A DNA stretch of 64,000 bases from Myxococcota bacterium (GCA_963674735.2 CAXXQS010000001.1:640001-704000), one strand, 5' to 3'; shown: positions 319 to 43,144, numbered from the stretch's first letter. The notes: generated from the letters alone by a model not told the origin. A program made the numbers and translations.

Positions 319-340
319 GCGTCGAATGGGAAATGGTTGC

Positions 341-2892: not shown

Positions 2893-3033
2893 GCCTGTTC
2901 CCAAATCGTTGTGGTGCGGGACTAAGCCGGTTTGTCGAAGCGCGGAACGATTGACGCCATCCGCGACTTCCGGTAAGGTCTCGGAACGAACGGTCCCGAA
3001 GTTCTGTCTATCGATATCCGATTGAGGACGATT

Positions 3034-9582: not shown

Positions 9583-9682
9583 TCCAACCTCCTTGATTCG
9601 ATTTATCTTTCTCGACGGAGAAAAAGCATAGCCGGTTTTGCCGATCCTGCAAGAATTTTCGTACTAAAAAGGGCCGACCCTT

Positions 9683-10381
9683 TCAGGTTGATACACGAGT
9701 GGCTTGCTGACTATTGGGACTACGCAACAAAATGGCCGAAACGATGGGCATATCGAAATCACTGACATGCCCATGGAGTCCATCCGGTGAAAACGTCTGA
9801 AAATGCTTGAATATTTTCAGCTCGTGCCGGTCGAAACCGATGAAGTCGAAAGGGACCGGATTGCGGTCGGGTGCGTGCAAAGGGCATTGATCCGCTAGAA
9901 TCAGCTTAGAAACCGGATCTTTGAAAGGCAATCCCTGAAAGCGGCAGATGGAAGGCCGATAGTCGTAAGCGAGGCAGGTGCCTTTGTCGCTCAGGAAGAG
10001 GCAAGGAGTCTGATCGAAACGGGAAAAAAAATCGGATGTTTCCATATTCTCCGGTTGATCGGCTATCCGATGAGGAAACGGCCAGCCGCAGGCTTCGAGT
10101 TCGCGGCTCTGCTCCTTTGCGCGGATATGAATGTCAGCCGCAAACACGGAATCAGGCGCATAGAAGGCCAGAAGCAGGATATCGAGAATGGAAACTTCGA
10201 ATAATCCCAGGCAACAATCGTGGCATCCTCTGTGACAAAAAACTGTAATATCATCATGTTGCGTGGCTTGGAGAAAGTGTGCATCGATGCTTTGCAGTCG
10301 GTCCAGATAGCGTCGCAAATCAAACCGGAGCTGGGTGTGTTGGGCCAAGTTTCGAATCTTGTCTTCAAATAGCTTGGGCAT
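9683..10381 (-). CDS. YkgJ family cysteine-cluster (putative Zn/Fe-chelating) protein
   Basis: CHRGCHDCC and CLFL...CLAYDYRPSICR motifs. Confidence 0.88.
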   Translation of the reverse strand: MPKLFEDKIRNLAQHTQLRFDLRRYLDRLQSIDAHFLQATQHDDITVFCHRGCHDCCLGLFEVSILDILLLAFYAPDSVFAADIHIRAKEQSRELEACGWPFPHRIADQPENMETSDFFSRFDQTPCLFLSDKGTCLAYDYRPSICRFQGLPFKDPVSKLILADQCPLHAPDRNPVPFDFIGFDRHELKIFKHFQTFSPDGLHGHVSDFDMPIVSAILLRSPNSQQATRVST

Positions 10382-10450
10382 GCACGCGATTGTAGATGAA
10401 GATCATTAAAAATTCTAGTGAAATGACTATCCCTCAAACGGATTGTTGCA

Positions 10451-10480
10451 TTGACAAGGCATTTTCAGGTGTTTTACAAT
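10451..10480 (+). promoter_or_regulatory. Sigma70-type promoter for the giant-protein operon
   Basis: TTGACA-18 nt-TACAAT in an AT-rich intergenic region, about 300 nt upstream of the 10777 start. Confidence 0.6.
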
Positions 10481-10776
10481 AGTCGAAACGAGGTATTGGG
10501 ATGCATGAAGATGCCAAACGGTTGCTGTCGAGGTCGCAGGTATGAATATTGCATCCAATAATATATGGAAGAATGGGAGCTAGGGTCCGACAGTATTTGT
10601 AACCAGATCGGATGTTAGGCTTGTTATTGTTAAGTAAAAACAAGGTGTTGGTGGGATTCCCGGCAGAGACACGGCGGAGGTCGTTCTGTGAGGGGTGAAA
10701 AATATTTTGAAAATACGCAAAAAATGCGAGCCGGTATGCTAGGCTTACCGCATAACCATTCCGGGCGAGGTGAGAA

Positions 10777-13700
10777 ATGAATAGCCGAGACGCCAAGACA
10801 GGGTGGCTGACGTGGGTCGTTTTATTGGGTCTGGTGTTGTCGATGATGATTATGGGCAATGCTTGGGCTGCGGGTCCTTGCGATCCCTGTGTAAACACGA
10901 CACAGTGCGGCGGTGGCTACGATTGCTGGGATTACAATAGCGGGGGGACCGCGACCTTGGTTGTCCCGTCTGGGTATAATGGGTTTTGTATGAAATCCTG
11001 CCTGTATTACGATGCCGTAGCCGAAAAATACAAGGCACGTTCCGACTCTTGGTGCACCAGTAATGCTGGGTATCCCAGCAATGAATGCAAGTATTGGGTG
11101 CCTTATGGTAGCACGGTTCCACAGGCGAAATGTCTGCCCAACGTGGCGTTCGTTACAATCGAATGTACGACCGGGAATCCGACCTATCAAGATTCATGTG
11201 AAAATGATTGGCGAACGGATTATTGCGCAATTGACGAACATTGCGTTCCGGGTACGCCACAATGCAAAAGCGACAATGAGGCGGATGCCTATGATCCAGA
11301 AACCAATCCCAATCCCTGCTCGAATGGCGAAGACGATGACCTCGACGGTTACTACGATTGTCTGGATAGTGATTGTGATGGAGCTTTGAACTGCGCAGGG
11401 AATCAGTGTGAGTCCTGTAACGACAATGCGGATTGCAGTACGGGAGACTTGGTTAGTTTTGTCTGTCATGATGACGGGTATGGAAAAGTTTGTACGCAGG
11501 AATGCGATGCTTTCACTTGCGGCCCAGGCGCGACTTGCAAGAATGTCGCCGGTCAAGATCTGTGCATTCCGGATGTTCGCGAGTATATTTGTGCCGGACA
11601 AGAGCTCCGATCGGTTAATTATTGCAATGCAAACCTTCTGGTTGATGTGTGTGATGTCGATCATATTTGCAATGAACTTCTGGGTGAATGTGAGCTCATT
11701 ACGGCACTTGAGAGTGTGTGCAACGACGGGTTTGATGACAATTTCAACGGATTGACGGATTGTGACGATCTTGGGTGCAGAGATTATCCCGACTGTCCGT
11801 CGCCCGAAGTTGTCCACCCTACGCTGCGCAGCAATCATGGGGGGGGGATTTGGCATTTTACCGCAGCCGACGATGGTACGGAAATTTCCGATTATCACTA
11901 CAATATCAGTGAGTTTATCATTGATGAAGGTGTTACGATCAACGTTTCACCTCAGAAAAAACTATATATCAAAGCAAACAAAATAACCATCAACGGTACG
12001 ATCGATGCCGACGAAGCCGGTATGCCGGGAGGAAAAGGAAGTCCGACGAAAGATGCCGGGGCTGACGGTTCCTCGCACCATTTGGGTGGAAATGCGGGTG
12101 AACAGGCCAGCGCAAACGCGGGTCGCATGGACCCTCAGGCTCTTGAATATGTCATGTTTGCGTTCGAGGAGGATGGTGCGACCTTACCCGAGGAGTTTTA
12201 CTTTGAACTCGGCGGTGGTTTCGGTACTCCCGGCGGGCAGGCTGAGCTGAATTTGGATGATGTGCCCAGCTATTGTTCGGTTGGTTGTGATTGCGGTTGG
12301 ACTGGTAGCTGTTCTTGCAACAAGGGGAGTGGTGCTGTTTGCTCCGGTGGTGGCGGTGGTGGCGGCACGGGTGGCGGTTATATGACAAATGGATGTCAAG
12401 GCAATGATGCCGCGCCTGGTTTTCAGCCGACGTCTTTAACGAGTGTTCACTGTAACGGTGGAGATGGTGGCTCGGGGGCGGAAGTAACGAGCTCTTTCAG
12501 CGACTACGATCGTTACGGCTGGCTGCTGATGGGATCCGGTGGCGCGGGTGGTGGTTCCGGGGCCGGAAACGGATCGGGAGACGGTGCTCCCGGCGGAGAC
12601 GGCGGTGGTGCCGTTGCCCTTGAAGCGACGGAGTGGATTCATCTCGGTGCCAACGCGGTCATCACCGCAAATGGTGGGTCGGGCCTTTTTACTGGAACGG
12701 CGAGTGAGCCGGATGTCCTCGATGGCGCGGCATGCGAGAATTGTGATGAAGCGACCGGCGAAGCTTGTACAAACTACTATTTCGGTGGTGGATGTGGTGG
12801 GGGTAGCGGTTCCGGCTCGGGAGGCGGGATCTTGCTGGCGGCTCCGGACGTTTCACTCAATGACGGTGCCAGTCTATCTGCCAAGGGTGGGGTTGGTCAC
12901 AATTTGAATTGGTGGCAGATGGAGATCGTCATCGATCTTTTCTTTTTCGTCATAGAGTTGGGATATATCGTTTGTGAGCCGACGAGTGGAGATATCAGCT
13001 ATGATGGCGCGGGAGGCGCGGGTGTCGTCAAGGTTTTTGATGACGACGGGGTGAATGATTTTTGTTATGGTGATGGTTGTGCCGATATCTCCGGTTGTGG
13101 TGCGGCCAATGTCGCTCCGCAGTATCACGCACTTCAGGATTTGACGGTTCGCGTTCGCTACGCAAGCGACCCCGATGGTCCCGATGTCGATACCTATCCC
13201 TACGTGGTAGATGGCATCGAGTATACAGGCACAACAACTTTATCCGTTGTGCCTGGAGGAGAGTACTCGTTTAGCGCGGCTTTGACCCATTCTTATTTGG
13301 ACGGCGATCAGACCCGCTACTCCAGTTTTGTCGAGTGGTCGCTTGACCCTTATGATCCGTTAACGCCGGAAGCCCCTCCGAAAACGACGGTTCGCGATTA
13401 CATGATCACCGACGAAAGTGTTGTCACCCTTTATGTTCTTGCCGAGACATACTATTTGTGGGATGGCAGTCGAAGCTCTGAATGGTCGGAACCGGAAAAC
13501 TGGCAGTTGTGCGCAGTCGATTCGGTGAATTGCACACCCGACTCGAACGGCTATCCGGCTTTCATCGCCCCCTGTCTTTTGCCTGGGGATATCAACAGCC
13601 ATTCGGTCAAAGTGTTGACCAATGATACAGAGGGCGGATCGTCTTATGCCAGCACCCTGTACATTACGGGAGACCTTTACTGTAAAGACATGGAAATCGG

Positions 13701-16700
13701 GCACGAAGCGAATGTGATGTTTGCGATGGATCAACCAACCGCTGTTGAGCTTGATGAGTGTCACGATTTGGTTATGCCTGAATGCGATCCGGGTGATGAG
13801 ATTGTTTGCTTCGACAATGCTTTTGTGTGCAGCGGGTTTGGCCAGTGCGTCAATTCGTGTACCGAAGATTGGCAATGCATGCTCATTCAACCGAATGCGG
13901 TTTGCGATTCGAATGTTTGCACCATTCCTCTCGACCAAAGATGCTATGGCGGCGAGTTCAGTTGTGTCGACAGCCAATGCGTCAACACTTGCTCCTCGGA
14001 TTCTCAGTGCCAGGCGGCCAATCCCAAATACACCTGTGAGGGGAGTACCTGTGTTTACAATCCGGCGAGTGAAGGGGCTTCCAACCTGACGATTGGTGGC
14101 ACTTTCGTCGTACGTGGCGACCTCGGAGGTGAATCCGACGATCCGATTGAAGGAAATGTCATCACGGTAAACGGCAATACTCAGCTTGGTCCGCTTGAGG
14201 GACAACTTGGCTTGGCGCAACTTTACCTGAACAATGCAACCATTGTTGCCAACGGAAATCTGGTTGTGACGAACCGCGCCCGTATTTATCGAGAAAATGC
14301 AGTCGGCGACACGGATGCGGCGATCCAAGTCGGAGGTGGTCTTGTCGATGATCCGGGAACGGCGCAATTGGAAGCGACGCTGATCGATTTCCGTTCACAA
14401 GATTACGATGCCGGTCTGTTCCGCATTCAACTGGCGGGAGCCGATCGAAACGTACAGTTGGAGTCGAGTTTCGGACCTATCATCGACGAACAGATTTCGG
14501 AAAGAAATTTAGGTGTTTTGGATGTTGCCCGAGGTGTTTTGCATATCGGCGGTAATACCGTAACATTAAGTGAATCCCTACAGGTCGGTGCGGAAGGCAA
14601 GGTGGTTCTCGGGGCAAGTTCCAGTCTGCGAGTTATTGGTAACGGTGACCTGGCCACGGCGAAGCCCATCGTGCTTAGTGACCGTGGGGCGCTTTCGGAT
14701 GCAATCGTCAGTGATGGTGGCTCTTTATGGGTCGGACCGTTCAATTATAACTATGCAATCAGTGTTCCTGCCGCACATGCCAGTGTTATCGACTTCGGCG
14801 TCAACGCCCGGGTCACGTTGAACGAAGGAACATTTTTCTATATCGATAACCTGGAAAAATGTACCGGCTGGGATTTGGATCTCGATCAGGCTGCCTATCT
14901 GGTCGCCGATCAAACTCGGTTTGAAATCGACAACGATCTGACGATCACTTCGCCGGGACTTCTGAATGTAACGGATTGTGAGTTTAATGCCGGTGCCGGT
15001 TACCAGGAATTTGACCCAAGCAACCCGGTGACGTGTCAGTCCGGTGAAATTCAACGTCCGGGTGACTTTACGGTAACGGATCCGAGTTCAACGTGTACAG
15101 AGCAGACTTGTAGCATCGATGCCGCGACCGAAATCGAGTTCCCCGGTTTTGCTTTCTCAACGATGGGGGAGTTTGAAGATATCGGCGGAAAACTGGTGCC
15201 GACCAGTGATGGTGCCGAGATTGGCGGCAACGCGGCTTTCGATGAGTTGCGGGTCAATGTGGACTTGGTCATCCCATCCGGTGCAAGCCCGATTTTCGAG
15301 GATCTCGTTTACGTCCAGAATGACGGCAAACTGGAGGTTCGTCCGGGCGGCGTACTGCGTTTCGGTAATGATGCCGTGATGGAAGTCTGGGGCGAGCTGG
15401 ATATGCGGGGCACTTACGTAAGTGACACCGACATCACGTATGCGATGTTGTCACATCGTCTGGATGATGAGACGTCGACTTACACGGTGAATATTGAGCT
15501 GGGAGGAACGATCAAGGCTAGCTATGCCATCTTCGAATATATGGGAGTCACGGGGCTGACGGTCAAAGATGGAGCGACGGTCGATGTAACCGATAACTTC
15601 AGCCACTGTCGGTTCCGTTATAGCTATCATCCTAGTAGTTACAGGATGCTGGCTATTGATAATAGCCAGGAACTTATCATTGATGGTGCGCGGTTTATTT
15701 CGAACGTACATCCCAGTAGCTTTGGTGGGTTGCATAACGCTGCCAAACAATACGATCAGGGTGTGCTCGTGTTCATCAATGAGCGCTGCGATCCTGACAA
15801 TGTTCCGATGGATAACCTTGACTGTGTCGGCGGGGACAACTGGGATATCAGCGGGGAACTCTACGATCAAGAAAGTTATGTCGGCGTACGGCTGGAGCGG
15901 ATTTATTGGACGCCCGGTTTGTCGGTTTCCGATTACAAAGCGGTTGTTTACGATCGCTATGCGCCGCTGAATTCTGAAAAGAGCTATATCCTGTTTGGAA
16001 TCGAAAACATCAATAACCCGACGAGTACGGAGTATTGCATCAAAGACAACCTGACCGACGTGATCCTGGGATCGGATTACCGACTGTCGGCTGCGACTTG
16101 TGATGCGAATTGGGGAAATAAGGAATTCTGGGGCGGTGGCGGTGGAGTTATGATCGAAGTGCCGGATCGGTCCAGCTTCCAATTTGCGGCTAAGTCGCGC
16201 CTGGTTATCGAAAATGATGTGGGGGGTCCTCTTTATACTTATCCCGCGAGTGACTGGGTGGTTTCGGATGCAACGGTTGGTCCGACCGGCGATCGTACGC
16301 CATCGGACCCGACTGCGGCTGCCGCGGTTATCGCCACTCCGCAAACCATCGATCCGGAAGATCGCAACATTGGTCTGGCTTGGGGATTGCTGGGCGACCC
16401 CGGAGCGGGTGAAGATTCCACGTGGGATGTCAAGTTTGCCGCTTTGCGCGGAGTGGGCCCCAATAGCCTTGGGGATATGGCCGGATTGCCGAATCATGGT
16501 CACGTGCTGGCGGATGTCCCGTCAGATTTCACTCCCGTCAAAGGCTTCTGGGATAACTTCGAGATGGAATACGAAGGTGCTCCGCCTTGGCAATATTCTC
16601 CTCAATGCGCTTGGACGCGGGAGAATTCCGTTCTCAAGGGAGAAAATCCCGGACAGAGCGGCTGTGCCGAAGGCGAATACTATTCGCGAATTTTGTTCAA

Positions 16701-19700
16701 ACCACCAAACGATGTCATCGAGTACTACGATGAGCTTGCCGGTGGTTATGTGATGACATTCGACCTGAAACGCACCGGTGGTAGCGGCGGTCCTGAAGTC
16801 ACGTTTCTTCTGGATACGGATTACACGGGTGATCCGGAAGATGTGGTCAATCCCACTGCAGCTCGCTGGCAGATCGGTGTTATGGACGACCAACTGGTTC
16901 CGAAGTCCAAATTGTTCCACTCGGGGGATGCCGCATCCAATATCGAAGATTTCTCCCTGGTATCGGATCGTTGGTATCAAGTTATGATCTATGTTTATCA
17001 CATCGATGATGTGACGAACGGATCCGTGCATATGGCGCGTGGTTATGTGAATGGGCAGCGTTTGTGGGAGATTGATCTCTCAAGCGGCGTAACCGGAAAT
17101 GCCGCTGCCAACCTGAACTGGTTCGGTTTCATGCTGCATGATTCCGAGGTCGAAATCGACAACCTCATGGTTGCTCCGCTGCTCGATCCCGTGCAGGGGA
17201 CTGTCGATGTCGGAAACGGTCCGGAGACGCGTTGGACCTTTACGGATGATGACGCGAAGGATCTGGCTTCGCCTATTACCCCGGATTTCACGTTCAGCGA
17301 CATTACGGCGATTGGCGGTGAGGCTATCCAGGTGACGGTGGTTGAGCCTGATGCGGCCGATGGAAACAATGCGACCTATAAAGACCAGGGCAGTGCTTAT
17401 TTCTACTATGTCCTGGGGTTCGATAGTGAAGGAAATGTGAGTAATTACGTCCGAAATCCCGGCTTTGAAGGATTGAACGTCGATGTCTGGCAGGGAACCG
17501 GACCGGATGACGATCCGTTGCGTCCCTATTTCGACGAAACCGAGGGCGTGTTGGCCGAGGCTCTGGAAGGTCGTTGGCTGGGAACGATAGCGCTGCCTTT
17601 CAGCAAGTCCGTAACGATGATGGGCGTACAAAACATCCAAGCCCCATACGTAGCTGAAAGCATGATGCCGGGTAGTTCGATCCTGCGATTCCAGCGCTAT
17701 TTCAAGATCAACGATTATACCGATGGTTCGGTTTTCCCGGCGACTTTCACAGTCAACTTTGCCGATGCTTCGTCGAGTACGGCGGTTGGAATGGAGTTTG
17801 CGTCCGTGACGGATGGCTGGCTGATCGATACCGCTCGGATGCAGCTTGATCAGACCGATCAGGTGGCATCGCTTCAGGTGTTCTCGCAACCGTCGGGTGC
17901 GACCCCCAACTACGAATTATCTCTCGATCAAGCGCGTCTGGACGTGATTACCGGGCAGGCCATGTGGGCGGGGTATAATTACACCCAGATAGAATACAAT
18001 GCGGAGTTTTTGGGCGGGAAGTGCGATTTTGCCGAGTTGAAAGTCGACGACGGCGAGGGCGGTTGGAAATGGCCCGAAAGTGGAACGGTGACGGATAACT
18101 GGGTTTTCCAGACCGCCAACGAACGGCGTTTCTATCGTATCCGTTCTTGCGATGCAACCGGTGGCGAAGACGATAACTGCGGAGACTGGCGAGGAGGCCA
18201 TACCTGCAACAGCGACGCCGAATGTGTTGCGCTCAACAAGGATTATATCAAGTGTGTGGACTTTGACGGCCACAACTACTGTGCCCGCTGTGTCGATGCC
18301 GGTTGTTCGACGCCCCAGGATTGCGTGCCGGGCGTCGAGGTTTATTCGTCGGCCGTTCCGCCTGCGAACCCGTTGCTTGCGACCAAAAACACCGATTTCA
18401 GCACATTCCAGAATGCGGATCCCGATGGCAACGCTTTGGTGTTGGCTTGGGATAACGGTGCCGGAACACTTAAAAACTCGACGGGTACCGAATATCAAAT
18501 TCGAGGTTTATCGGCGGAAAACGCGGCCGAGTGCTCGTCCTGTAATCCTTACGAGGAAACCTGCAGTACTTCCGTGCGCGTAGAAAACTACTGGAATCCG
18601 ATTTCGGAATCGTTTACGGCCAATGCGTCGGAAGATGCCACGTGGTCGATGTTCGAAATCAATATGGTTAAGCGTAAAAGCGCGGGACGTATGCGTAATA
18701 CGGGATCCAACCCCAACAACCTCGATCCGCAGCGCTTCTACTGCTTCCAGGTACGGGCGCAAAACCATAACGCTCAGCCGACGGCCTGGACGGCTATCAG
18801 TAACGCGGTTCAACCTCCGGCACGCCCCGTGGTCGATCTGCTTTCGGTCAGCGTGAAATACGGGCAGAATCCGGCCGGTTACGATGCGGATAGTCCTTTC
18901 GCGATGTCGACCGATGGGTCGACCTACCAGGAAGTTTCCTTTGTCGTAACGGACCCCAACAATGTCGGGACATACAGCGATCTCGATGTCGTCGGATTCC
19001 GTGTTTTGCCACACGGCGATTATGACCTGACCTATATGAACGGCAACCTCTATTCCCATATGCAACGTGGCGATTTCCGGGCGATGTACACCGGAAGTCA
19101 TGATTTGCATGCAAGTAGTAGCTGGGAATTCCTGATCGAAGCGGGCAAGGAGAACATCAACGGAAACCAGGCGGTCGACCTGCTGGAGACCGGAGTCGAT
19201 GCCTCTTTCGCAGCCGAAGTCTCGGCGGGGAACCTGGTGAACGGGGTGCGCTTTACGTTCCGCTGGACTTTGGACGAGAACTACCCGAGCGGCTATGAAA
19301 CCGATCAGGATCAGGGTTTCATGATCAAGGTCGCCGATACCGAGGGCATCGTCACAGACTGGAACGTCAACGAAGTCGGTAGTTGTGAAAAGGTGTTCCA
19401 TACCTCCTATACGCCGCCCACTCCGGTATTGGCTTCGCACGGTTCGCCCACCGTTTGGATCAATTCCGTCGAACCGCAATTGGTGGTTCTTGGAAACCTC
19501 GATTACGATCGGCTCGATCATGTCAACCTGTCGACGGTCTGTGCGGCCTTTACGGACGATCAAGGCAACCCGGACCCGGTGTGTAACGAATGGGGACTGA
19601 CGGGTCCAAGGGCCGGTTGGTACAACTGCATCGATGCGGATGCCGATTCACGCGATGAAGTGGATTACCAGGTCGAAATCTGGAAGGGTGAGGTCTCGGA

Positions 19701-22047
19701 ATCGGCGGGTAGTGTTGTGTATGGGTGTAAGGATGGTGGCGGAAACCTCTTGGCTTCATCGCCTTGGTTTGAGGATATTGCGACCGAGCAGATCGAAGTC
19801 GGCGGAGTGATGCAAACGTTCTATGGCCTGCATCTCAACGATTCCGGAGCCAGCCAGAGCTTCGACTTCACCTTGCCGGGCGATGGCGCGTACTGCTGGC
19901 TTTCGCGAGCGCGCGACAATCACGACTATTCTCCGCTGGCGACTCCCGTCAATTCAACAGAGAAGACCTTCTTCGGTGTCGATACGGTTGCACCCGATTG
20001 GGAAACTCCGGCTACGGCGTTGACGGTAAAAGCGAAGACGGAAGAGGGATCGCAGTTTGATGTTCCCGATACGGAAGATAACTGGATGATCGAGAACGAT
20101 CTCAAGTTTTACTGGGATCCGGCTCGTCGCGACCCGCTGTCCGCGCCTCCGGCGGAAAACGAAACCGCCCCCATCGCCTATTACCACTACACGATCACGC
20201 CCCATCCGACGGATCGTAGTCAGGCGAATATGGCGGGTAATCTACAAAACGAAGGGCAGGCCCTTTTCGTTTATCCGCCTTCCGCCGAAACGTGGCAGCA
20301 GTTCCTGGCGGGAATCTACGAATTCCAGGTTACGGCGTTTGATGAAGCGGGCAACGAATCCGATGCTCTCGACTTCACCATCCGCATCGACTGGAAGAAC
20401 CTGAGTTCTCCCTGTCTGCATTCCACAACGCACCCGAACGAAACCTATGTCTATTGTAACGATGGCAGCTACGATGTCGGTGGGGAAGTGCCGGTTTACG
20501 ATCCGACGGCTCCCACCCCGATCATCCGCTTCATGGATCCGGTGGTGGCGAATAAAGATGCGTTTGTCGCCAACGATATTTGCTGCCAAGAATCGGGTGG
20601 ATGTAGCTGCAATGATGTCGTGACCGATTGCGACTGGGCGCTGGCTCATAGCGAGATCGTTGCCTACAGCTTTACCTTCAGGGAAGACACGGTTTCCCCT
20701 GATATCAACTACGAATGGGAAGACGATGCTCCGGCCGAAGGTGTGTGCGATGCCTACATGCGTTGCTACGATTCGCAGCAACCGGATAACTTTGACGACC
20801 GTTTCTCCTTTACCTTCCTGCCGTCGCGTTACCAGTTGGCCGATGGCTCTTACCTGGATTGTGGTGAGGACGATGTCGGAGATCCGTCGCCGTGGCGTTG
20901 TGTGCAGTATTTTGTGAGCAATGCCGATGGCGAGCAACAATCCGGCTCTTATTTCGTCAGCCTCTACGGCTGGTCGGAGATCGGATCGCGCACGGAATTG
21001 GCCAATTGGCAGTTCAATGTCTGCGGTTGCAACGAGGACAACTGCAAGAATGTCGGAGGGCGCAAGGATGACGGCCGGGCCATGGCCTTCTTCGATGGCG
21101 GCGAACTCGATATGACGGGTTCGGCCGGTGGCGAGGGCGGTTCCTCGGTGAATGTCGATCCTTTCTATCTGGACGAGAGTGAAGTCGCTAACGCGGATTA
21201 CGCCAAGTGTGTGGCTGACGAGGTGTGTCCGGATCTTGCCGACGCATTCAGCGGATCGAAAACGCGTGATAGTTATTACAAGAGTGAAACCTTTGCAACC
21301 TATCCGGTGGTGAACGTGGATTGGGACAGCGCGCAAGCCTATTGTGCCTGGGCCGAAAAACGCTTGCCGACCGAAATCGAATGGCTCTATGCCGCACAGC
21401 AAATTTTGGCGAGTCATCCCGATGGATTGGAAGCCAGCTTCCCCAGTGAGTTGATCGAGCGTGGTGATACCGATCCGGTCGATGCCGTGCACGGTCCCAT
21501 CTTAACGGGCAAATTGACCTTGCTGAATCTCTTCGACAACGTGTCGGAGTGGACATCGAGCTGGTGGTCGCCCGATTTGATGGTTCCCACTGCGGATGAG
21601 ATGGATATCGAAGCCATCCGGGCTCAGTGTCTGGCAAGTTGTGCGGCCGCTGCTGATGGCGAATCGGCCGAGCCGGTTGAGACCGAAGACACGGCGTTGT
21701 CGATGACGGGCCGCGAAACCGTGCAAACCGAGACCGAGCATTTGGCCGCCGAGAATCTGCAACTGGCCGATCCGGCTTGTGCGGCGGCCTGTCAGCGCAA
21801 AACGGTTCGCGGCGGTTCGTTTGAAGATGAATCGATCAGTCTGGATCTGCGCAAGGCTGTTTTGCCGGGCGATCAACAACCGAGCCTGGGCTTCCGCTGT
21901 GCCCGCGATGTCGGCGAAAATGATGAAGAGCTTAGCCGCGATGCGTCCATTGATTCGGATAGCGGTGTCGAGCCGATCGATCAGTCCGCGCAGGTTGAAC
22001 CGTCGATTGATACAACAAGCGTCGAGCGTGTTCACCTTCGGCGTTGA
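10777..22047 (+). CDS. Giant (3756 aa) secreted Cys/Gly-rich multidomain surface protein with C-terminal FGE-sulfatase (SUMF1/C-lectin fold) domain
   Basis: RBS GAGG; Sec signal (AWA); Cys-rich and CxxGxDDxxxGxxDCxDxxC motifs; Gly-rich domain; WDGSRSSEWSEPENW plus beta-helix-like region; LamG/DUF1080-like (about 16546-17172); NPGFE CBM4/9-like; FN3/Ig-like segments; FGE motifs FYLDESEVAN, YPVVNVDWDSAQAYCAW, KRLPTEIEW, NVSEW, RGGSF, LGFRCAR. Confidence 0.88.
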   Translation: MNSRDAKTGWLTWVVLLGLVLSMMIMGNAWAAGPCDPCVNTTQCGGGYDCWDYNSGGTATLVVPSGYNGFCMKSCLYYDAVAEKYKARSDSWCTSNAGYPSNECKYWVPYGSTVPQAKCLPNVAFVTIECTTGNPTYQDSCENDWRTDYCAIDEHCVPGTPQCKSDNEADAYDPETNPNPCSNGEDDDLDGYYDCLDSDCDGALNCAGNQCESCNDNADCSTGDLVSFVCHDDGYGKVCTQECDAFTCGPGATCKNVAGQDLCIPDVREYICAGQELRSVNYCNANLLVDVCDVDHICNELLGECELITALESVCNDGFDDNFNGLTDCDDLGCRDYPDCPSPEVVHPTLRSNHGGGIWHFTAADDGTEISDYHYNISEFIIDEGVTINVSPQKKLYIKANKITINGTIDADEAGMPGGKGSPTKDAGADGSSHHLGGNAGEQASANAGRMDPQALEYVMFAFEEDGATLPEEFYFELGGGFGTPGGQAELNLDDVPSYCSVGCDCGWTGSCSCNKGSGAVCSGGGGGGGTGGGYMTNGCQGNDAAPGFQPTSLTSVHCNGGDGGSGAEVTSSFSDYDRYGWLLMGSGGAGGGSGAGNGSGDGAPGGDGGGAVALEATEWIHLGANAVITANGGSGLFTGTASEPDVLDGAACENCDEATGEACTNYYFGGGCGGGSGSGSGGGILLAAPDVSLNDGASLSAKGGVGHNLNWWQMEIVIDLFFFVIELGYIVCEPTSGDISYDGAGGAGVVKVFDDDGVNDFCYGDGCADISGCGAANVAPQYHALQDLTVRVRYASDPDGPDVDTYPYVVDGIEYTGTTTLSVVPGGEYSFSAALTHSYLDGDQTRYSSFVEWSLDPYDPLTPEAPPKTTVRDYMITDESVVTLYVLAETYYLWDGSRSSEWSEPENWQLCAVDSVNCTPDSNGYPAFIAPCLLPGDINSHSVKVLTNDTEGGSSYASTLYITGDLYCKDMEIGHEANVMFAMDQPTAVELDECHDLVMPECDPGDEIVCFDNAFVCSGFGQCVNSCTEDWQCMLIQPNAVCDSNVCTIPLDQRCYGGEFSCVDSQCVNTCSSDSQCQAANPKYTCEGSTCVYNPASEGASNLTIGGTFVVRGDLGGESDDPIEGNVITVNGNTQLGPLEGQLGLAQLYLNNATIVANGNLVVTNRARIYRENAVGDTDAAIQVGGGLVDDPGTAQLEATLIDFRSQDYDAGLFRIQLAGADRNVQLESSFGPIIDEQISERNLGVLDVARGVLHIGGNTVTLSESLQVGAEGKVVLGASSSLRVIGNGDLATAKPIVLSDRGALSDAIVSDGGSLWVGPFNYNYAISVPAAHASVIDFGVNARVTLNEGTFFYIDNLEKCTGWDLDLDQAAYLVADQTRFEIDNDLTITSPGLLNVTDCEFNAGAGYQEFDPSNPVTCQSGEIQRPGDFTVTDPSSTCTEQTCSIDAATEIEFPGFAFSTMGEFEDIGGKLVPTSDGAEIGGNAAFDELRVNVDLVIPSGASPIFEDLVYVQNDGKLEVRPGGVLRFGNDAVMEVWGELDMRGTYVSDTDITYAMLSHRLDDETSTYTVNIELGGTIKASYAIFEYMGVTGLTVKDGATVDVTDNFSHCRFRYSYHPSSYRMLAIDNSQELIIDGARFISNVHPSSFGGLHNAAKQYDQGVLVFINERCDPDNVPMDNLDCVGGDNWDISGELYDQESYVGVRLERIYWTPGLSVSDYKAVVYDRYAPLNSEKSYILFGIENINNPTSTEYCIKDNLTDVILGSDYRLSAATCDANWGNKEFWGGGGGVMIEVPDRSSFQFAAKSRLVIENDVGGPLYTYPASDWVVSDATVGPTGDRTPSDPTAAAAVIATPQTIDPEDRNIGLAWGLLGDPGAGEDSTWDVKFAALRGVGPNSLGDMAGLPNHGHVLADVPSDFTPVKGFWDNFEMEYEGAPPWQYSPQCAWTRENSVLKGENPGQSGCAEGEYYSRILFKPPNDVIEYYDELAGGYVMTFDLKRTGGSGGPEVTFLLDTDYTGDPEDVVNPTAARWQIGVMDDQLVPKSKLFHSGDAASNIEDFSLVSDRWYQVMIYVYHIDDVTNGSVHMARGYVNGQRLWEIDLSSGVTGNAAANLNWFGFMLHDSEVEIDNLMVAPLLDPVQGTVDVGNGPETRWTFTDDDAKDLASPITPDFTFSDITAIGGEAIQVTVVEPDAADGNNATYKDQGSAYFYYVLGFDSEGNVSNYVRNPGFEGLNVDVWQGTGPDDDPLRPYFDETEGVLAEALEGRWLGTIALPFSKSVTMMGVQNIQAPYVAESMMPGSSILRFQRYFKINDYTDGSVFPATFTVNFADASSSTAVGMEFASVTDGWLIDTARMQLDQTDQVASLQVFSQPSGATPNYELSLDQARLDVITGQAMWAGYNYTQIEYNAEFLGGKCDFAELKVDDGEGGWKWPESGTVTDNWVFQTANERRFYRIRSCDATGGEDDNCGDWRGGHTCNSDAECVALNKDYIKCVDFDGHNYCARCVDAGCSTPQDCVPGVEVYSSAVPPANPLLATKNTDFSTFQNADPDGNALVLAWDNGAGTLKNSTGTEYQIRGLSAENAAECSSCNPYEETCSTSVRVENYWNPISESFTANASEDATWSMFEINMVKRKSAGRMRNTGSNPNNLDPQRFYCFQVRAQNHNAQPTAWTAISNAVQPPARPVVDLLSVSVKYGQNPAGYDADSPFAMSTDGSTYQEVSFVVTDPNNVGTYSDLDVVGFRVLPHGDYDLTYMNGNLYSHMQRGDFRAMYTGSHDLHASSSWEFLIEAGKENINGNQAVDLLETGVDASFAAEVSAGNLVNGVRFTFRWTLDENYPSGYETDQDQGFMIKVADTEGIVTDWNVNEVGSCEKVFHTSYTPPTPVLASHGSPTVWINSVEPQLVVLGNLDYDRLDHVNLSTVCAAFTDDQGNPDPVCNEWGLTGPRAGWYNCIDADADSRDEVDYQVEIWKGEVSESAGSVVYGCKDGGGNLLASSPWFEDIATEQIEVGGVMQTFYGLHLNDSGASQSFDFTLPGDGAYCWLSRARDNHDYSPLATPVNSTEKTFFGVDTVAPDWETPATALTVKAKTEEGSQFDVPDTEDNWMIENDLKFYWDPARRDPLSAPPAENETAPIAYYHYTITPHPTDRSQANMAGNLQNEGQALFVYPPSAETWQQFLAGIYEFQVTAFDEAGNESDALDFTIRIDWKNLSSPCLHSTTHPNETYVYCNDGSYDVGGEVPVYDPTAPTPIIRFMDPVVANKDAFVANDICCQESGGCSCNDVVTDCDWALAHSEIVAYSFTFREDTVSPDINYEWEDDAPAEGVCDAYMRCYDSQQPDNFDDRFSFTFLPSRYQLADGSYLDCGEDDVGDPSPWRCVQYFVSNADGEQQSGSYFVSLYGWSEIGSRTELANWQFNVCGCNEDNCKNVGGRKDDGRAMAFFDGGELDMTGSAGGEGGSSVNVDPFYLDESEVANADYAKCVADEVCPDLADAFSGSKTRDSYYKSETFATYPVVNVDWDSAQAYCAWAEKRLPTEIEWLYAAQQILASHPDGLEASFPSELIERGDTDPVDAVHGPILTGKLTLLNLFDNVSEWTSSWWSPDLMVPTADEMDIEAIRAQCLASCAAAADGESAEPVETEDTALSMTGRETVQTETEHLAAENLQLADPACAAACQRKTVRGGSFEDESISLDLRKAVLPGDQQPSLGFRCARDVGENDEELSRDASIDSDSGVEPIDQSAQVEPSIDTTSVERVHLRR
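11839..11847 (+). repeat. G9 homopolymer in frame (Gly-Gly-Gly) within the giant gene
   Basis: cat-ggg-ggg-ggg-att; the longest homopolymer I noticed in the window. Confidence 0.75.
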
Positions 22048-22136
22048 GGTGGTGAGCGTTTGCTGATGATCTTGGGTTGGAGCCACGGGTAATAGACGCA
22101 ACCCCCATCGGGGGAGGGGCAAGGAAGGTGGTCCAC

Positions 22137-24383
22137 ATGAAGTCGTATCTCGGAAGCCATTGGGCGTCGCCCGGTCGCGTTGTTTTGCTTGTGATGCTTC
22201 TGATCGGAGCTTTTGTGATCCAAGCCTGCGGTGGCGGCGGTGCCGAGCCGGATGGCGACGAGGAAATCGACAATAAATGTGAGGAAGGCTATATCTACTC
22301 CAATGGCCGCTGCGTTCCCATCCCTACCGATGGTGATACGGATAGGGACAAAGACGCCTCCGATGGCGATGTGCCGGATGGAGACATCCCCGACGAAGAT
22401 CGCCCGGATGGCGACCTCGACGACGTGCCTACTGACGGTGACATCGAAGATCTGGAACCGGAAGACGAGCCCGAGTGGGAGACTCCCGATCAAAACCCCG
22501 AAGTCGTCGATGAATACGATGAAAGTCCCGTTTGTGTGACGAGTTTCGATTGTCTGGAAGGGGAGACGTGCATCGATGGGCGGTGCGTGGAAGACACCCC
22601 GGACGGCGATACCGATCCTGACTGGGACTGGGAACACGATGGGGAATTGGAGTATTGCGAATCGGGGCAAATTTCCTGTGCCAGCAATGATGATTGCCCA
22701 CCTTTCATTCTGTGCAATCCCGAAGATAACTGCTGTGACGAAAGCTATTATGTGACCTGTCAGGTGCATGAGCAGTGTCCGACAGGTTATCACTGTAACG
22801 GAATCGGTATCTGCGACTCTTTCTGCCTGTGGGACACGGCGTGTCCGCCGACATGGTGTTGCACCGATATCGGTTACTGCGTTCCCTTCCAGTTCTGTAA
22901 CGGTGGTGATGAAGAGGTCGAGGAAGAGATTCCCACCTGCAGCAGTTGTCAGGACTGCCTGAATCTTTTCGGTGAGGGGTATTTCTGCAACATCGATACG
23001 GCGACTTGTCAGCCGGGCGATTGCTGCGATGATTCGGATTGCGACCAGCAGGCGGGGGGATTGTGCAATCTCTATACCGGCACCTGCTTCTATCCCGGAG
23101 ACCAAAGTAACATCGGCTCCATCTCCGGTACGATAACGGCGGATGACAGCTATGAGGGTTTTGTGGGGCTGGCCGAAATGCAGGCGCGCAACCTGTTCGG
23201 GGACGTGCTCGGCAGAGGAGAAATCGGCGAAATATCCGAAATCGGTGGCGGCGTCATTGAGGCCGATTACACGATAGAAGGATTGTTTGAAGGCGATTAC
23301 TATGTTTACATCGCCCCCATTGATGCTCCGGAGGTGGAACCGGTTCCCTATTTTTACAACCCAGTTACCATCGACTACGATACATCGGAAAGCACCCATG
23401 TTGTGGGGATCGACTTCTACGCTGGGGTGGACAATCCGCAGTTAGCGGAAATCAGTGGAACGGTTTTCAATACGGAAGATTACTGGTACCGAAATTTCCG
23501 CGTGCAGCTTCATCGAGAAGTCAGCTTGAACGAGTTGGAACAGGTCGGGACCGTAAATGCCATCGGTGAAGATGGCCCCAGCTCGTTGGAGAGGGCTTTT
23601 TCGTTTATCAATGTCGAGGATGGTCTGTATTACCTCGAAACGCGCGTCACCATGCCCGGTGGTGAGGAACAAGATTATTGGTCGTCGCCGACCGTGATTG
23701 ACCTGCAAAACAATCCGATGCAACGGGTGACAGGTATCGAATTCTACTTCAGTTCCAGCAACGACGTGTTGGGAAGTCTGTCGGGTACGATTCGGTATGC
23801 CGATTGGTACGATGCCGAAGATTTCTCCGTCGAACTGTATCGCTATCCGAAAACCTATGCTGTCGCCCGCGCCGCGATCAGTAGCGCGAGCAAAGGTGAA
23901 CTGAGCTATAGCTTCGATAATATCGAAGGAGGCTTATACTGGATACGGGCCTTTGCTATGGTGGGGGATGTGGTTGTGGAAACGCGTCCGGCCAGTTCCA
24001 CCATTAATGTGATCGAAGGTGAAGAAAACGATTACACCGGACGTAACGTGTTCTTCGACGTGGTGCGCAGCGATTTGTGCTCGATTTCCGGCACCTTGTC
24101 TTTCCCCGACTCCATGGATGCCAATACCTTCCGGGTCAAGGTGTTCCAGGATGCGGCTTATACCCAATTATTGGTTGCCGATCCTGTTTTCGATGTGGAT
24201 CCCGAATTGAACGAAGCGAACTATTTTGTTGAAAACCTGGATTCGGGCACTTACTATCTGAAAGCGGAATCCGATGATGGAGTCGGAGGTGTTTCGGAGG
24301 TCGCCGCTTCAGGATCGGTTACCGTCGATGTTTCAAGCGGCCCGAAGGATGTTGGGGATGTGGATCTTGATTTCAACCCATAA
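22137..24383 (+). CDS. Lipoprotein: DGD linkers, Cys-rich modules and four prealbumin/carboxypeptidase-regulatory-like beta-sandwich repeats
   Basis: RBS AAGGAAGG; lipobox IQAC; four ~105-aa repeats starting (G/A/C)(S/E)(I/L)SGT and containing xxGxY(Y/W). Confidence 0.8.
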   Translation: MKSYLGSHWASPGRVVLLVMLLIGAFVIQACGGGGAEPDGDEEIDNKCEEGYIYSNGRCVPIPTDGDTDRDKDASDGDVPDGDIPDEDRPDGDLDDVPTDGDIEDLEPEDEPEWETPDQNPEVVDEYDESPVCVTSFDCLEGETCIDGRCVEDTPDGDTDPDWDWEHDGELEYCESGQISCASNDDCPPFILCNPEDNCCDESYYVTCQVHEQCPTGYHCNGIGICDSFCLWDTACPPTWCCTDIGYCVPFQFCNGGDEEVEEEIPTCSSCQDCLNLFGEGYFCNIDTATCQPGDCCDDSDCDQQAGGLCNLYTGTCFYPGDQSNIGSISGTITADDSYEGFVGLAEMQARNLFGDVLGRGEIGEISEIGGGVIEADYTIEGLFEGDYYVYIAPIDAPEVEPVPYFYNPVTIDYDTSESTHVVGIDFYAGVDNPQLAEISGTVFNTEDYWYRNFRVQLHREVSLNELEQVGTVNAIGEDGPSSLERAFSFINVEDGLYYLETRVTMPGGEEQDYWSSPTVIDLQNNPMQRVTGIEFYFSSSNDVLGSLSGTIRYADWYDAEDFSVELYRYPKTYAVARAAISSASKGELSYSFDNIEGGLYWIRAFAMVGDVVVETRPASSTINVIEGEENDYTGRNVFFDVVRSDLCSISGTLSFPDSMDANTFRVKVFQDAAYTQLLVADPVFDVDPELNEANYFVENLDSGTYYLKAESDDGVGGVSEVAASGSVTVDVSSGPKDVGDVDLDFNP

Positions 24384-24419
24384 TCAAAGATGGGTTACCT
24401 GTCTGTTATGTGGAGGAGA

Positions 24420-25364
24420 ATGATGAAACGGACACGATTATTGGGGTTGGCGCTATCGGGGGTTCTTCTCATCTTGCTTGTGTCTTGCAGCAGCAACGAC
24501 TCGACTTCTCCCGACGGCGACGAAACCACGGAATGCCCGAGTGGTCAGGTTCTGGGACCGGACGGCAAATGTCATACTTTGCCGGATGGCGATGTGCCCG
24601 ATCCGAGTGACGGCGACCAGGATACGGATATCGAACCGGAAGACGATGATACGGATGTTGATACGGTCGATATCGATGGTGACAAGACCGATACCGACGG
24701 GGACACGGTCGATACCGACGGCGATACGGTCGATACCGACGGCGATGAAATCGAAAATGTCGATACCGACGGTGATGTCATCGATATAGATATTGATTCC
24801 TATGAAGGATCGGATAACAACCCCGACGGAGACGTCGATGAGGAAGATGCCGACGAAATAATGGGGACTTGTCAGGGGCCTTGCACCCAGGATGAGCAAT
24901 GCGGTTACGGCTGTTACTGTCAGACCGACACCTGTGGTCGCGAATGTTTCTCCGATTTCGATTGTGGGGGGCCGCGTCCTTGGTGCAATCCCGAACGTGG
25001 GCGTTGTGAAGTGATGCCGGCGGACGAAGAGGACGTTGAAGAGATTATCGTGAATTGCCCCGGAGGCACCGACGAGGAATGCTCGGTGGGCTACATTTGC
25101 ACATCGAACTTCTGTAATCTAGGTTGTACCCCGGGTGGGTGTCCTTTCGGCTTTACCTGTGATGATAGCGACCATCCGCGTTGTCAGATGGATAGCAGCA
25201 AGGCGGGACAGGCACTCAAGAATCTGACGCCTTGTCAGTCGGACAATATGTGCAAAAGTGGGCAAATTTGCGATTGGAACCGCTCCGTGTGCATTTCCGG
25301 TTGCCGCGACGATGCGGAATGTCCCCCCGAAGCGCCTGTCTGTAGCGAGGGAATCTGCTATTAG
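24420..25364 (+). CDS. Lipoprotein with DTDGD repeats and Cys-rich (Dickkopf-N-like) modules
   Basis: RBS GGAGGAG; lipobox LVSC; long Asp-rich linker; repeated CxxDxxCxxGxxC modules; no catalytic domain seen. Confidence 0.8.
   Translation: MMKRTRLLGLALSGVLLILLVSCSSNDSTSPDGDETTECPSGQVLGPDGKCHTLPDGDVPDPSDGDQDTDIEPEDDDTDVDTVDIDGDKTDTDGDTVDTDGDTVDTDGDEIENVDTDGDVIDIDIDSYEGSDNNPDGDVDEEDADEIMGTCQGPCTQDEQCGYGCYCQTDTCGRECFSDFDCGGPRPWCNPERGRCEVMPADEEDVEEIIVNCPGGTDEECSVGYICTSNFCNLGCTPGGCPFGFTCDDSDHPRCQMDSSKAGQALKNLTPCQSDNMCKSGQICDWNRSVCISGCRDDAECPPEAPVCSEGICY
24690..24776 (+). repeat. 21-nt coding tandem repeat (DTDGDTV)
   Basis: gataccgacggggacacggtc / gataccgacggcgatacggtc / gataccgacggcgat, plus a fourth degenerate copy. 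Confidence 0.85.
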
Positions 25365-25388
25365 TTCCGATAACGATCCGTAAACACC

Positions 25389-25416
25389 AAACCCCACGTT
25401 TCGGCGTGGGGTTTTT
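25389..25416 (+). terminator. Rho-independent terminator ending the giant-protein operon
   Basis: aaaccccacg-tttcgg-cgtggggttt stem followed by a T-tract. Confidence 0.85.
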
Positions 25417-25692
25417 CATTAAAGAAGCGTTCGGCCCACTGCGTCATGTTCTCCGGATAATTCTTTACGATTGCAAGAGAAAAGTGGTATGAATAAACAG
25501 CTAAGCCTGTCGACGCGCTGCTTCATTGGCGTTGTTTGGGGATAGGCTGGCTGCTGTTTCCCTTTGCGGAATCATCCTTCCGACTTTTCAGGCAAGATCA
25601 ACATTGTGGTTGGAATGGGATAGGAAACATCGGGATGCAAAGCAACCTGTTGTCACTCTATCTAGTGATTGGTAATTTACGAGGAGTAACTC

Positions 25693-26913
25693 ATGGCCAG
25701 ACTGCTCGACCTTCATGTGCATCCCAGTCTAAAGATGTATTACCTGCCTTATTTGAGGGCATCTTTTCATGCACGGGTGCTATCGGGACCGTTTCGCAAC
25801 CCCTTGTCTTTTCGAACTCAGTACTCGCACCTGAAGAATTCGCCAGTCAAAATCATGCTTTGCGCACATTATGTGATTGAGCAGGATTTCGTCAAGCATG
25901 GCATTCAGGGATGGGCGCGAGCTGTTTCATGGATCTTTGCTCCTTTGTTTTACGGGAAGCTGAGGCGGGAAGATCCTTACAAAGCCTTGAATGGGATGAT
26001 GGACACGCTGGAGAAGGCTGCCGCCAACACCAATCGCTGGGTATTTGGAAACGGTACCCGCTTTAAACTCGTGCGCCGCTTTGCCGAACTTCAGGATTTG
26101 GGATCCAACGAAATCGCTCTCGTTCATGCCATCGAAGGGGCGCATGCGTTGGGATACCATCCCGAGCCCGGTCAGAGCCTCGATGATTTCATGCAGCAGA
26201 CGCTCAAACGCTTGAAAGAAGTGAAGGAACGAGGTGTTTGTCTAATCACGCTGGCCCATTTCTGGGACAACATGTTTGCGCCGCAAACCAACGGCACCGA
26301 GCTTGTTCCGAAAAGGAAAAACGGTGAAATGTCGCGCGATTACGATGACTTGATGGCGGAAATGAAGCGCGCCGACTGGGAGTGGGGCGATAAACAACGT
26401 TTGGCCGAGCCTTTTGCTCGCGCCTGTCTTGAAATGGGCATGCTTATCGACATCTCCCACACCCAGGAACATGCTCGTTGGCGGATCTACGAGCTTTGTG
26501 AAAGCTATGATCGTCCTGTTATCGCTTCACATGTGGGTTTGCGCCATTTTTTCAACCACGAGTACAACTTGTCCGATGACGAAGTGTTGCGGATTCATAA
26601 ATTGGGCGGAATCGTGGGCTTGATTCTGTCGCGCCGTTGGCTGGTCGACCCGCTCAAACATCCCGAAACCTCCGGTAACGGGATCGATGATCTCATCGAA
26701 AACATGCTTTATATTCGCAACCTTACTGGCGATGTGTCCTGCATCGGCATCGGGACCGACTTCGATGGCTTGACGGATCCCTTCGATGATTGCTATCATC
26801 CGGGACACCTGGACCGCGTTGCCGAGGCCATGCGAAAGCATTTCACCGAAGGCGAAATCGACCAGATTCTCTACGGAAATTCCTTGCGGGCGCTTGAACG
26901 CGGGTGGGATTAA
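25693..26913 (+). CDS. Peptidase M19 (membrane/renal dipeptidase family) amidohydrolase, cytoplasmic
   Basis: RBS GAGGAG; DLHVH, IEGAH, TLAH, IDISH, IASH, GIGTDFDG motifs; no signal peptide. Confidence 0.9.
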   Translation: MARLLDLHVHPSLKMYYLPYLRASFHARVLSGPFRNPLSFRTQYSHLKNSPVKIMLCAHYVIEQDFVKHGIQGWARAVSWIFAPLFYGKLRREDPYKALNGMMDTLEKAAANTNRWVFGNGTRFKLVRRFAELQDLGSNEIALVHAIEGAHALGYHPEPGQSLDDFMQQTLKRLKEVKERGVCLITLAHFWDNMFAPQTNGTELVPKRKNGEMSRDYDDLMAEMKRADWEWGDKQRLAEPFARACLEMGMLIDISHTQEHARWRIYELCESYDRPVIASHVGLRHFFNHEYNLSDDEVLRIHKLGGIVGLILSRRWLVDPLKHPETSGNGIDDLIENMLYIRNLTGDVSCIGIGTDFDGLTDPFDDCYHPGHLDRVAEAMRKHFTEGEIDQILYGNSLRALERGWD

Positions 26914-39440: not shown

Positions 39441-39599
39441 AACGAATCGCGCAAAGGGCGCATTGAACGCATTTCCCCCTGGACAAAACACCCCTGAATT
39501 CGGTAGCCTAACGAGGTTGAACGCCGGAGTTATGTGAGGAAACCGGCGCGTGCGGGCCCTAACAAATCGGATGGCGGATCGTTCAGGAGTGAGAAGGAC

Positions 39600-43130: not shown

Positions 43131-43144
43131 GTGGAGGTTGACTG

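Follow-up and report, generated by a model that had tools for sequence, protein, structure and literature searches.

A giant mosaic protein and its lipoprotein neighbours: a candidate order-specific surface cassette of uncultured Myxococcota

How might a bacterium bring a protein of 3756 residues to its surface and keep it there, when beyond a Sec signal no standard secretion or anchoring domain is found in it? This question is raised by three consecutive genes in a 64,000-nucleotide stretch of DNA from a Myxococcota bacterium (G000:C1:640001-704000; this whole stretch is called the window, and positions are counted from its first letter). The source genome, in 3 contigs, has a size of 5.26 Mb and is 94% complete. 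Most giant surface proteins of uncultured bacteria lack annotation. More than 90% of the giant protein studied here is without a Pfam match, yet it is single-copy, order-wide and paired with a lineage-restricted lipoprotein. According to our preferred reading, to which we assign a probability of about one half, the locus is an order-specific cassette of an uncultured Myxococcota lineage that encodes an elongated extracellular fibre or adhesin together with its cognate lipoprotein partner or partners. The three genes are:

10777-22047, plus strand: giant gene A, a single uninterrupted open reading frame (ORF) of 3756 aa
22137-24383, plus strand: lipoprotein gene B, 748 aa from the ATG at 22137
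24420-25364, plus strand: lipoprotein gene C, 314 aa from the ATG at 24420

The strongest evidence comes from conservation. A full-length match to lipoprotein B was found in 10/10 species genomes of the taxonomic order (E <= 1e-10) and in none of the 391 other sampled genomes of the phylum (E <= 1e-15; 10/401 when the genome of the window is included). In all ten genomes of the order a giant gene lies directly 5' of B on the same strand, a count composed of all seven loci fetched first (7/7), G005, G007 and the window. Adjacency, order and strand were kept over four families, at protein identities of 23-37%. The upstream giant ORFs of the seven loci range from 2738 to more than 4435 aa, and in G005 a 4.3-kb contig contains the last ~520 residues of the giant followed by B. 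Five orthologs are collinear with the giant of the window from about aa 1100 to the end (23-30% identity), and the giants in the two genomes of family f2 match it at aa ~2110-2490 and over the C-terminal ~380 residues only. Gene C was recovered by blastp in 4/7 loci, and G007 has a positional look-alike with a lipobox and a hairpin; the loci of G002 and G005 end at contig borders downstream. The link between the giant and the 748-aa lipoprotein proposed in a preliminary description of the locus is thus borne out by adjacency throughout the order, and the synteny fits a functional tie of the giant gene to B and, in most lineages, probably also to C.

The giant is single-copy in the genome, and so are its N-terminal module and middle part. 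A word-indexed homolog search with giant regions 1-3756 and 2600-3600 returned nothing; this result is read as the ~30%-identity limit of the index and not as absence, because HMMER then found relatives. A profile of aa 2222-3420 gave 2397 matches among 1.84 billion representatives, and the best 150 of these comprised about ten giant-type relatives, the rest being generic Ig/fn3 repeat proteins. All of the metagenome relatives scanned with Pfam (7/7) had a C-terminal FGE-sulfatase domain and no other family. A search with a five-row alignment of B produced three loci, all known already.

The gene arrangement agrees with the preliminary description, since the giant ORF has zero internal stops, all three genes are co-oriented, and they are separated by 89 nt (giant-B) and 36 nt (B-C). 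The ORF of gene B opens at TTG 22077, yet the ATG at 22137 has AGGAAGG ~10 nt 5' of it; similarly, the ORF of gene C opens at ATG 24390, yet the ATG at 24420 is preceded by GGAGGAG. The putative transcription signals are:

10451-10480, plus strand: sigma-70-like promoter site TTGACA-18-TACAAT, a pattern match only (11/12)
25389-25416, plus strand: terminator-like GC-rich hairpin, ACCCCACG..CGTGGGGT, then a T-run, visible in the sequence

The promoter-like site, which had been described as near-consensus, is the top match in 9500-26500 and lies inside the 395-nt intergenic region 5' of the giant, but promoter-like sites in 9500-26500 occurred at chance level (14 found, 12.4 expected from shuffles). 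Likewise, hairpin and T-run of the suggested terminator can be seen by eye, but a terminator scanner applied to the region did not call them. From the sequence it is plausible that the giant, B and C form one transcription unit.

What kind of protein is the giant? It was read from its composition, from family scans and from models obtained segment-wise with AlphaFold (AF2), whose local confidence is given as pLDDT (predicted local distance difference test). The resulting modules, all on the plus strand, are listed below; FGE stands for formylglycine-generating enzyme.

10777-10869 (aa 1-31), plus strand: Sec-type signal peptide without lipobox (..GNAWA / AGP, read by eye)
10870-11811 (aa 32-345), plus strand: Cys-rich N-terminal insertion with 36 Cys and two acidic C..G.DD...G..DC motifs
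11830-13146 (aa 352-790), plus strand: N-terminal beta-helix core with long Gly-rich loops (AF2 and fold search)
13144-13461 (aa 790-895), plus strand: beta-sandwich (AF2 model residues 442-550, pLDDT 55-87)
13462-14061 (aa 896-1095), plus strand: W.G..SS.W..P.NW motif, then a variable Cys-rich insertion (ortholog alignment)
14074-15711 (aa 1100-1645), plus strand: right-handed parallel beta-helix (AF2 and fold search)
16429-17190 (aa 1885-2138), plus strand: concanavalin-like lectin or DUF1080-like jelly roll (Foldseek, VIA)
17449-17976 (aa 2225-2400), plus strand: CBM4/9-like module, weakly supported (ortholog Pfam match, Atlas lead)
17977-21036 (aa 2401-3420), plus strand: Cys-rich knot, then FN3-like and Ig-like modules (profile matches, sub-threshold Pfam)
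21136-21909 (aa 3454-3711), plus strand: FGE-fold domain without the catalytic Cys pair (PF03781, PDB profile search)
21910-22044, plus strand: acidic C-terminal tail ending ..VHLRR (sequence)

Most of the earlier domain readings were recovered. The Cys-rich modules, acidic motifs and poly-Gly domain correspond to 126 Cys in total, 36 of them within aa 32-345, to two exact C..G.DD...G..DC motifs at aa 181 and aa 315, and to 59 Gly in aa 500-700. Models and fold searches supported a long mosaic that is mostly beta in structure and includes beta-helices and lectin-like modules. With Pfam, the sole family on the whole giant was FGE-sulfatase (PF03781, aa 3440-3602, E 2.7e-24), in agreement with the proposed FGE-type domain, and when the protein was cut into 21 overlapping 350-aa pieces (E <= 1), the extra matches were only sub-threshold ones of the PKD, Big_13 and fn3 types; Interfer-bind was also among the sub-threshold matches of the aa 2401-3420 region. 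The FN3/Ig-like assignment is weakly backed by these hits and by the aa 2222-3420 profile, positions 273-415 of which match fn3-rich proteins and positions 825-890 Big_13-rich proteins. Backing is also weak for the CBM4/9-like module: CBM_4_9 (PF02018) was matched by 1/6 orthologs at E 0.021 and not by the giant of the window, and the Atlas CBM_4_9 clusters at 0.88 for aa 2225-2400 are a lead only. A PDB profile search with six collinear giant orthologs detected nothing beyond FGE-fold chains.

Two clear folds came out of the segment-wise modelling and Foldseek comparison that had been suggested as a check. The model of aa 1096-2228 was built from 6 sequences (pLDDT 68.5, first 550 residues mostly 75-95). 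A right-handed parallel beta-helix, a fold used for the shafts of adhesins and tailspikes, takes up its residues 5-550 (aa ~1100-1645); the best VIA match was Vag8 (7akv, Z 17.9, 348 aligned residues, root-mean-square deviation (rmsd) 3.6), followed by the EtpA secretion domain (8cpk, Z 17.2), AlgE4 (Z 15.9) and pertactin (Z 15.6); tapirin and phage tailspikes were also among the matches. A concanavalin-like jelly roll is seen at residues 790-1043 (aa ~1885-2138), with 1oq1 as VIA match (Z 16.0, 191 aligned, rmsd 3.0), together with sialidase lectin domains (Z 14.5-14.7), ERGIC-53 (Z 14.3), the CBM66 structure 4b1m (Z 13.4; Foldseek E 2.4e-5) and the DUF1080 structure 3hbk (Z 13.1; Foldseek E 3e-5). 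The jelly-roll match extends over the whole domain and places it in the concanavalin-like lectin/glucanase fold (LamG, DUF1080, CBM66); this lectin assignment is at fold level only, because no sequence-family match was obtained. The beta-helix and LamG/DUF1080-like segments of the preliminary description are hence both represented by confident fold matches (Z 17.9 and Z 16.0).

Outside the window, at ~1.39-1.43 Mb of a second contig (G000:C2; L055-L057, L059, L061, L062), the genome contains a 10,590-aa open frame with at least three copies of the giant's lectin plus FN3 module (E 9e-20, 1.2e-14 and 1.6e-10) and additional Ig-like pieces.

Both folds also occur in proteins that act on polysaccharides, and the giant could accordingly be read as a surface-bound or secreted polysaccharide-processing enzyme, with a beta-helix lyase, epimerase or depolymerase targeted by lectin and CBM modules, and with B and C as accessory substrate-binding lipoproteins. 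Among the matches of the beta-helix are AlgE4, DFA-IIIase (Z 13.7), the Kp32gp38 depolymerase (Z 13.6) and the HK620 tailspike (Z 13.4), those of the lectin domain include 3-keto-glycoside hydratases of the DUF1080 type as well as lectin modules from glycoside hydrolases, and to these may be added the CBM_4_9 leads and the presence of EGF-tagged amylase and GH15 genes in the window. However, the fold matches are led by adhesin passengers, which are not enzymes, Pfam detected no catalytic family in the giant or in the seven relatives, no catalytic residues were identified, and the conserved cassette showed no genes for transport or other sugar use. An enzymatic giant appears unlikely to us on this evidence.

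The N-terminal part was modelled separately. The model of aa 346-1000 was built from 7 DNA-derived rows only, chosen after the whole metagenome relatives had misaligned the last third of this piece in a local test, and it reached a pLDDT of 53.8. In this model the strand rungs are confident, the Gly-rich loops between them (30-160 residues) stay below pLDDT 50, and a beta-sandwich (aa 790-895) comes next, with Z 7.4 to the pilus adhesin Cpa in the VIA search. For the helix, the six best of 48,161 chains searched with VIA were all TpsA secretion domains, namely HMW1 and EtpA (Z 11.4 each), FHA (10.1), HxuA (9.9), full-length EtpA (9.9) and HpmA (9.7), and the next, unrelated beta-helices followed at Z 9.0 or lower. 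In view of this small margin the module is read as a beta-helix of the TpsA/adhesin kind and not as a two-partner secretion (TPS) domain. It is conserved in orthologs, whose N-termini resemble the signal-peptide region of the window's giant, and it directly follows the signal peptide in G007, P0007, P0008, P0010 and P0013; the relative P0006 has neither the Gly-loop helix nor the large beta-helix. For the Cys-rich stretch of aa 32-345, the four aligned orthologs extending to the N-terminus offered no counterpart. Its coding sequence has a GC content of 0.50, compared with 0.546 for the window, and the acidic double-disulfide repeat NF033662 scored 25 bits on two stretches of the giant, below its cut-off of 41. 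Downstream of the sandwich, W895, G897, W903, N908 and W909 of the W.G..SS.W..P.NW motif are invariant in the ortholog alignment, and the Cys-rich insertion of aa 985-1095 is poorly common to the orthologs. Searched with N-terminal modules from the window and from three orthologs, PHROGs returned 0 families, and Atlas gave weak leads only for aa 346-900 (0.81-0.86, with Flg_new_2 at 0.86 for the sandwich).

These N-terminal matches bear on whether the giant is a TPS-like substrate, its Gly-loop beta-helix being a divergent secretion domain for an Omp85-family transporter encoded elsewhere. Such a role would suit the rank of the six best matches, the position of the module right after the signal peptide in orthologs with a complete N-terminus, and the three Omp85 genes of the genome. 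The margin over unrelated beta-helices is small, though, and the model is of low confidence; moreover, 320 Cys-rich residues precede the module in the giant of the window, P0006 does without it altogether, the TpsA family PF05860 is not matched even at E <= 1, and neither an Omp85 nor a ShlB gene adjoins the cassette. We therefore regard TPS-like export as quite improbable.

The known export and anchoring classes were considered in turn. For TpsA proteins, PF05860 had no match in the whole giant (E <= 0.01) or in its 21 pieces (E <= 1), which leaves a likeness of fold only; no TpsB gene (ShlB/POTRA) is present among the 18 flanking ORFs, and the Omp85 genes lie far away. A ShlB family search in the genome gave no match, but its control gave none either, and the search is hence uninformative. 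A classical autotransporter is rejected for lack of a match to the PF03797 barrel, the C-terminus consisting instead of the FGE-fold domain and the acidic tail. An RTX adhesin of a type I secretion system (T1SS) would be expected neither without any RTX Pfam match nor with the N-terminal Sec-type signal. MYXO-CTERM and other C-terminal sorting tags had no NCBIfam match at E <= 0.01 and the tail has no hydrophobic helix; no SLH match was obtained in Pfam or NCBIfam, and neither database revealed a C-terminal tail signature of the type IX secretion system (T9SS). The earlier reading of a Sec signal without lipobox, autotransporter barrel, RTX repeats, SLH domain or transmembrane sorting tail was therefore upheld both by eye and by these scans, and the search for a standard secretion or anchor domain in the giant came back empty from Pfam and NCBIfam. 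Genes for three secretins and three Omp85 proteins are present in the genome, each of them far from the cassette.

The giant was compared with type V adhesins (Vag8, pertactin, Ag43, UpaB, and the TpsA proteins EtpA, FHA and HMW1), with which it shares the right-handed parallel beta-helix in two segments (Z 17.9 and 11.4) as well as its length, Sec dependence and predicted extracellular location. Unlike them, it has neither a C-terminal beta-barrel nor PF05860, no TpsB gene was found adjacent, its N-terminal helix carries the Gly-rich loops of 30-160 residues, and beyond the large helix come lectin- and Ig-type modules, over 2000 residues in all, and an end with the FGE fold.

This C-terminal end was studied with a family profile against the PDB. 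The best match was pFGE/SUMF2 (1y4j, E 1.8e-25), active FGEs came next, and PorK/GldK (9mzu, E 6.5e-20) ranked behind; the FGE entries, at E 1e-21 to 1.8e-25, place the domain in the FGE fold. In the Streptomyces FGE rows (6muj, 2q17) two Cys, which we take to be the catalytic pair, stand just after GGSY, and both fall into insert or gap positions of the giant family profile. Among 8 aligned giants there is not a single Cys between RG(G/A/S)S and GFRCA (R306/G307 to C336 in the alignment). An active formylglycine-generating enzyme was thus rejected, as the fold is present but the catalytic Cys pair after GGS[YW] is deleted; judged by these alignments, the FGE-like end of the giant is not an enzyme. 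It also carries a ~75-aa low-complexity insert (aa 3600-3677). NCBIfam gave weak partial matches to GldK, EgtB and SenA, all on the FGE fold; membership in the PorK/GldK proteins of T9SS was rejected, with TIGR03525 reaching 50.8 bits, where the cut-off is 350, across only 46 residues, and with the lipobox missing from the giant. Acidic or polar residues make up the last 45 positions, without a hydrophobic helix, and a terminal hydrophobic-x-L-[RK]-x pattern was observed in ~11/15 giant relatives, no membrane helix accompanying it.

SUMF2 (1y4j) and PorK/GldK (9mzu, 9ots) thus rank high among the PDB matches of the C-terminal domain, and the SUMF2 row is likewise without Cys at the place of the catalytic pair. 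In contrast to both, the FGE fold of the giant, with its insert, is the C-terminal module of a 3756-aa protein and not a free protein or lipoprotein, and unlike for PorK/GldK no T9SS context was seen in the window. To our knowledge, Myxococcota are without T9SS. Beyond the fold, the giant shares no defining feature of type V adhesins or of non-catalytic FGE proteins.

Lipoprotein B consists of a lipobox (VIQAC), a ~100-aa acidic DGD-rich linker, a Cys-rich region and four repeated units, putative beta-sandwiches, that end in a ..G.YY.. motif; among 8 orthologs the lipid Cys31 is invariant, as are about 25 further Cys. CarboxypepD_reg (PF13620) was matched by 1/8 B orthologs (E 3.5e-5) and not by B of the window, and a PDB profile search gave nothing significant, with a weak match to NOMO2 at E 0.028. 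Lipoprotein C has a lipobox (LVSC), a conserved CP.GQ..G.C hairpin, a ~110-aa acidic linker and a Cys-rich C-terminal domain. Between B and C there is weak similarity in Cys spacing only (E 0.035).

Some further features of these lipoproteins were noted. A CP.GQ..G.C[HV] disulfide hairpin follows the lipid Cys in 6/6 C-type lipoproteins (window 24474-24530; L017, L018, L021, L022, L068), and a related C..G..W..G.CV is found after the lipid Cys in B proteins of family f1 (window 22260-22320). The B ortholog of G003 (L018, G003:C2, 13324-15360) was read through one TGA and is without the last repeat, which could be a truncation or a sequencing error. In G007, a B-type lipoprotein of 1245 aa (L068, G007:C10, 3231-6965, minus strand) contains a Cys-rich stretch like that of C (tblastn E 2.7e-7).

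Our preferred reading, the fibre with its cognate lipoproteins, would work as follows. The giant, a fibre of roughly 400 kDa, would cross the inner membrane via Sec, and its many disulfides would form in the periplasm. The outer membrane would be crossed through machinery encoded elsewhere, most likely one of the three secretin systems and less likely an Omp85 protein; we infer a type II-like export. The fibre would then be held on the cell by one conserved end docking non-covalently onto the outer-membrane lipoproteins B and C, and as a first guess this end may be the dead FGE domain with the tail. The 100-aa acidic tethers of B and C would serve as flexible spacers, and the lectin-like modules may bind glycans of surfaces, prey or polymers. 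Anchoring of the giant by B and C is inferred from synteny. A complex prediction with the C-terminal 341 residues of the giant and mature B (616 residues) gave a score of 0.00; as it was run without controls, it weighs neither way.

Giant repetitive adhesins such as LapA, at an outer-membrane pore, and SprB of Bacteroidota gliding are kept on the cell by specific envelope partners. The retention logic proposed for the giant is the same, but no homology was detected, and the giant differs in having an N-terminal Sec signal and no RTX repeats, T1SS signal or T9SS C-terminal domain. As to export, a giant-gene preprint (West-Roberts et al., bioRxiv 10.1101/2023.11.21.568195) describes very long ORFs of Omnitrophota, with domains assigned mostly by structure prediction, attachment and carbohydrate-binding content, and a peptidyl-prolyl isomerase nearby, and places these giant proteins beside type II secretion-like loci. 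The giant of the window is similar in length, domain content and the nearby peptidyl-prolyl isomerase, and differs in that there is no adjacent secretion locus here, two putative lipoprotein partners are present and the C-terminal domain is a dead FGE.

Several points weigh against the fibre-and-lipoprotein reading. No giant without B was met in the ten genomes of the order, but G006 and G009 (family f2) have other genes in place of C, which means that at most one lipoprotein is obligatory. At least five more large ORFs of the genome encode a DGD linker; as a common tether it is not specific to the cassette. No secretion gene stands beside the cassette in the window, where Pfam detected no secretion component or transporter gene among the 18 flanking ORFs; the flanks of the other loci were BLAST-compared with the neighbours of the window only. 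An enzymatic shaft is possible, because the beta-helix fold of the giant is also that of polysaccharide lyases, epimerases and tailspike depolymerases. Finally, the N-terminal module rests on the low-confidence model, and folds were resolved outside aa 1646-1884 and 2139-3420, the middle 1200 residues being beyond the models.

The first two of these points are also what would be expected if the three genes were mere neighbours, with the giant released as a protein of the extracellular matrix and B and C as unrelated lipoproteins of the envelope: binding between giant and lipoproteins is so far deduced, C is dispensable in family f2 and the DGD tethers are generic. Yet gene order and strand have persisted in every genome of the order despite protein identities as low as 23%, and B is confined to exactly the giant-bearing lineage, which makes chance neighbourhood quite improbable.

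If docking onto the lipoproteins is true, the locus would be a testable case of Myxococcota displaying very large adhesins without known sorting tags, and would add to PorK/GldK another envelope assembly that uses the non-catalytic FGE fold. If it is false, the locus would still serve as a marker cassette for the order and as a source of new lectin and beta-helix modules. A bolder proposal is that we are dealing with a previously undescribed mounting of a giant adhesin on a diderm cell. The adhesin, exported by Sec, would pass the outer membrane with no TPS domain, autotransporter barrel, RTX signal, T9SS tag or MYXO-CTERM, dock via the dead, PorK/GldK-like FGE end and the terminal L-R-x tail onto two acid-tethered CP.GQ..G.C lipoproteins, form an order-defining surface organelle, and use the Gly-loop beta-helix as a new elaboration of the TpsA-type shaft; taken as a whole, we consider this proposal unlikely.

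Divergently oriented 5' of the giant are genes for a cyclophilin with a 48-aa N-terminal extension (8944-9582, minus strand) and a CxxCxxCC (PF03692) protein (9683-10381, minus strand). They are also found upstream in G004 and G003 and are the only shared neighbours; possibly the two proteins are folding helpers. Further upstream (5736-8864), the window encodes a 1042-aa helical protein with a signal-like N-terminus, a C-terminal membrane helix and no Pfam family, which is not conserved beside the cassette in other genomes. At 39534-47986 there are three consecutive glycosidase genes (alpha-amylase, GH15-like, alpha-amylase). In two of the encoded enzymes the N-terminus is formed by EGF-type domains (PF00008; E 8.8e-19 and E 6.9e-7), a tag not usually carried by bacterial amylases.

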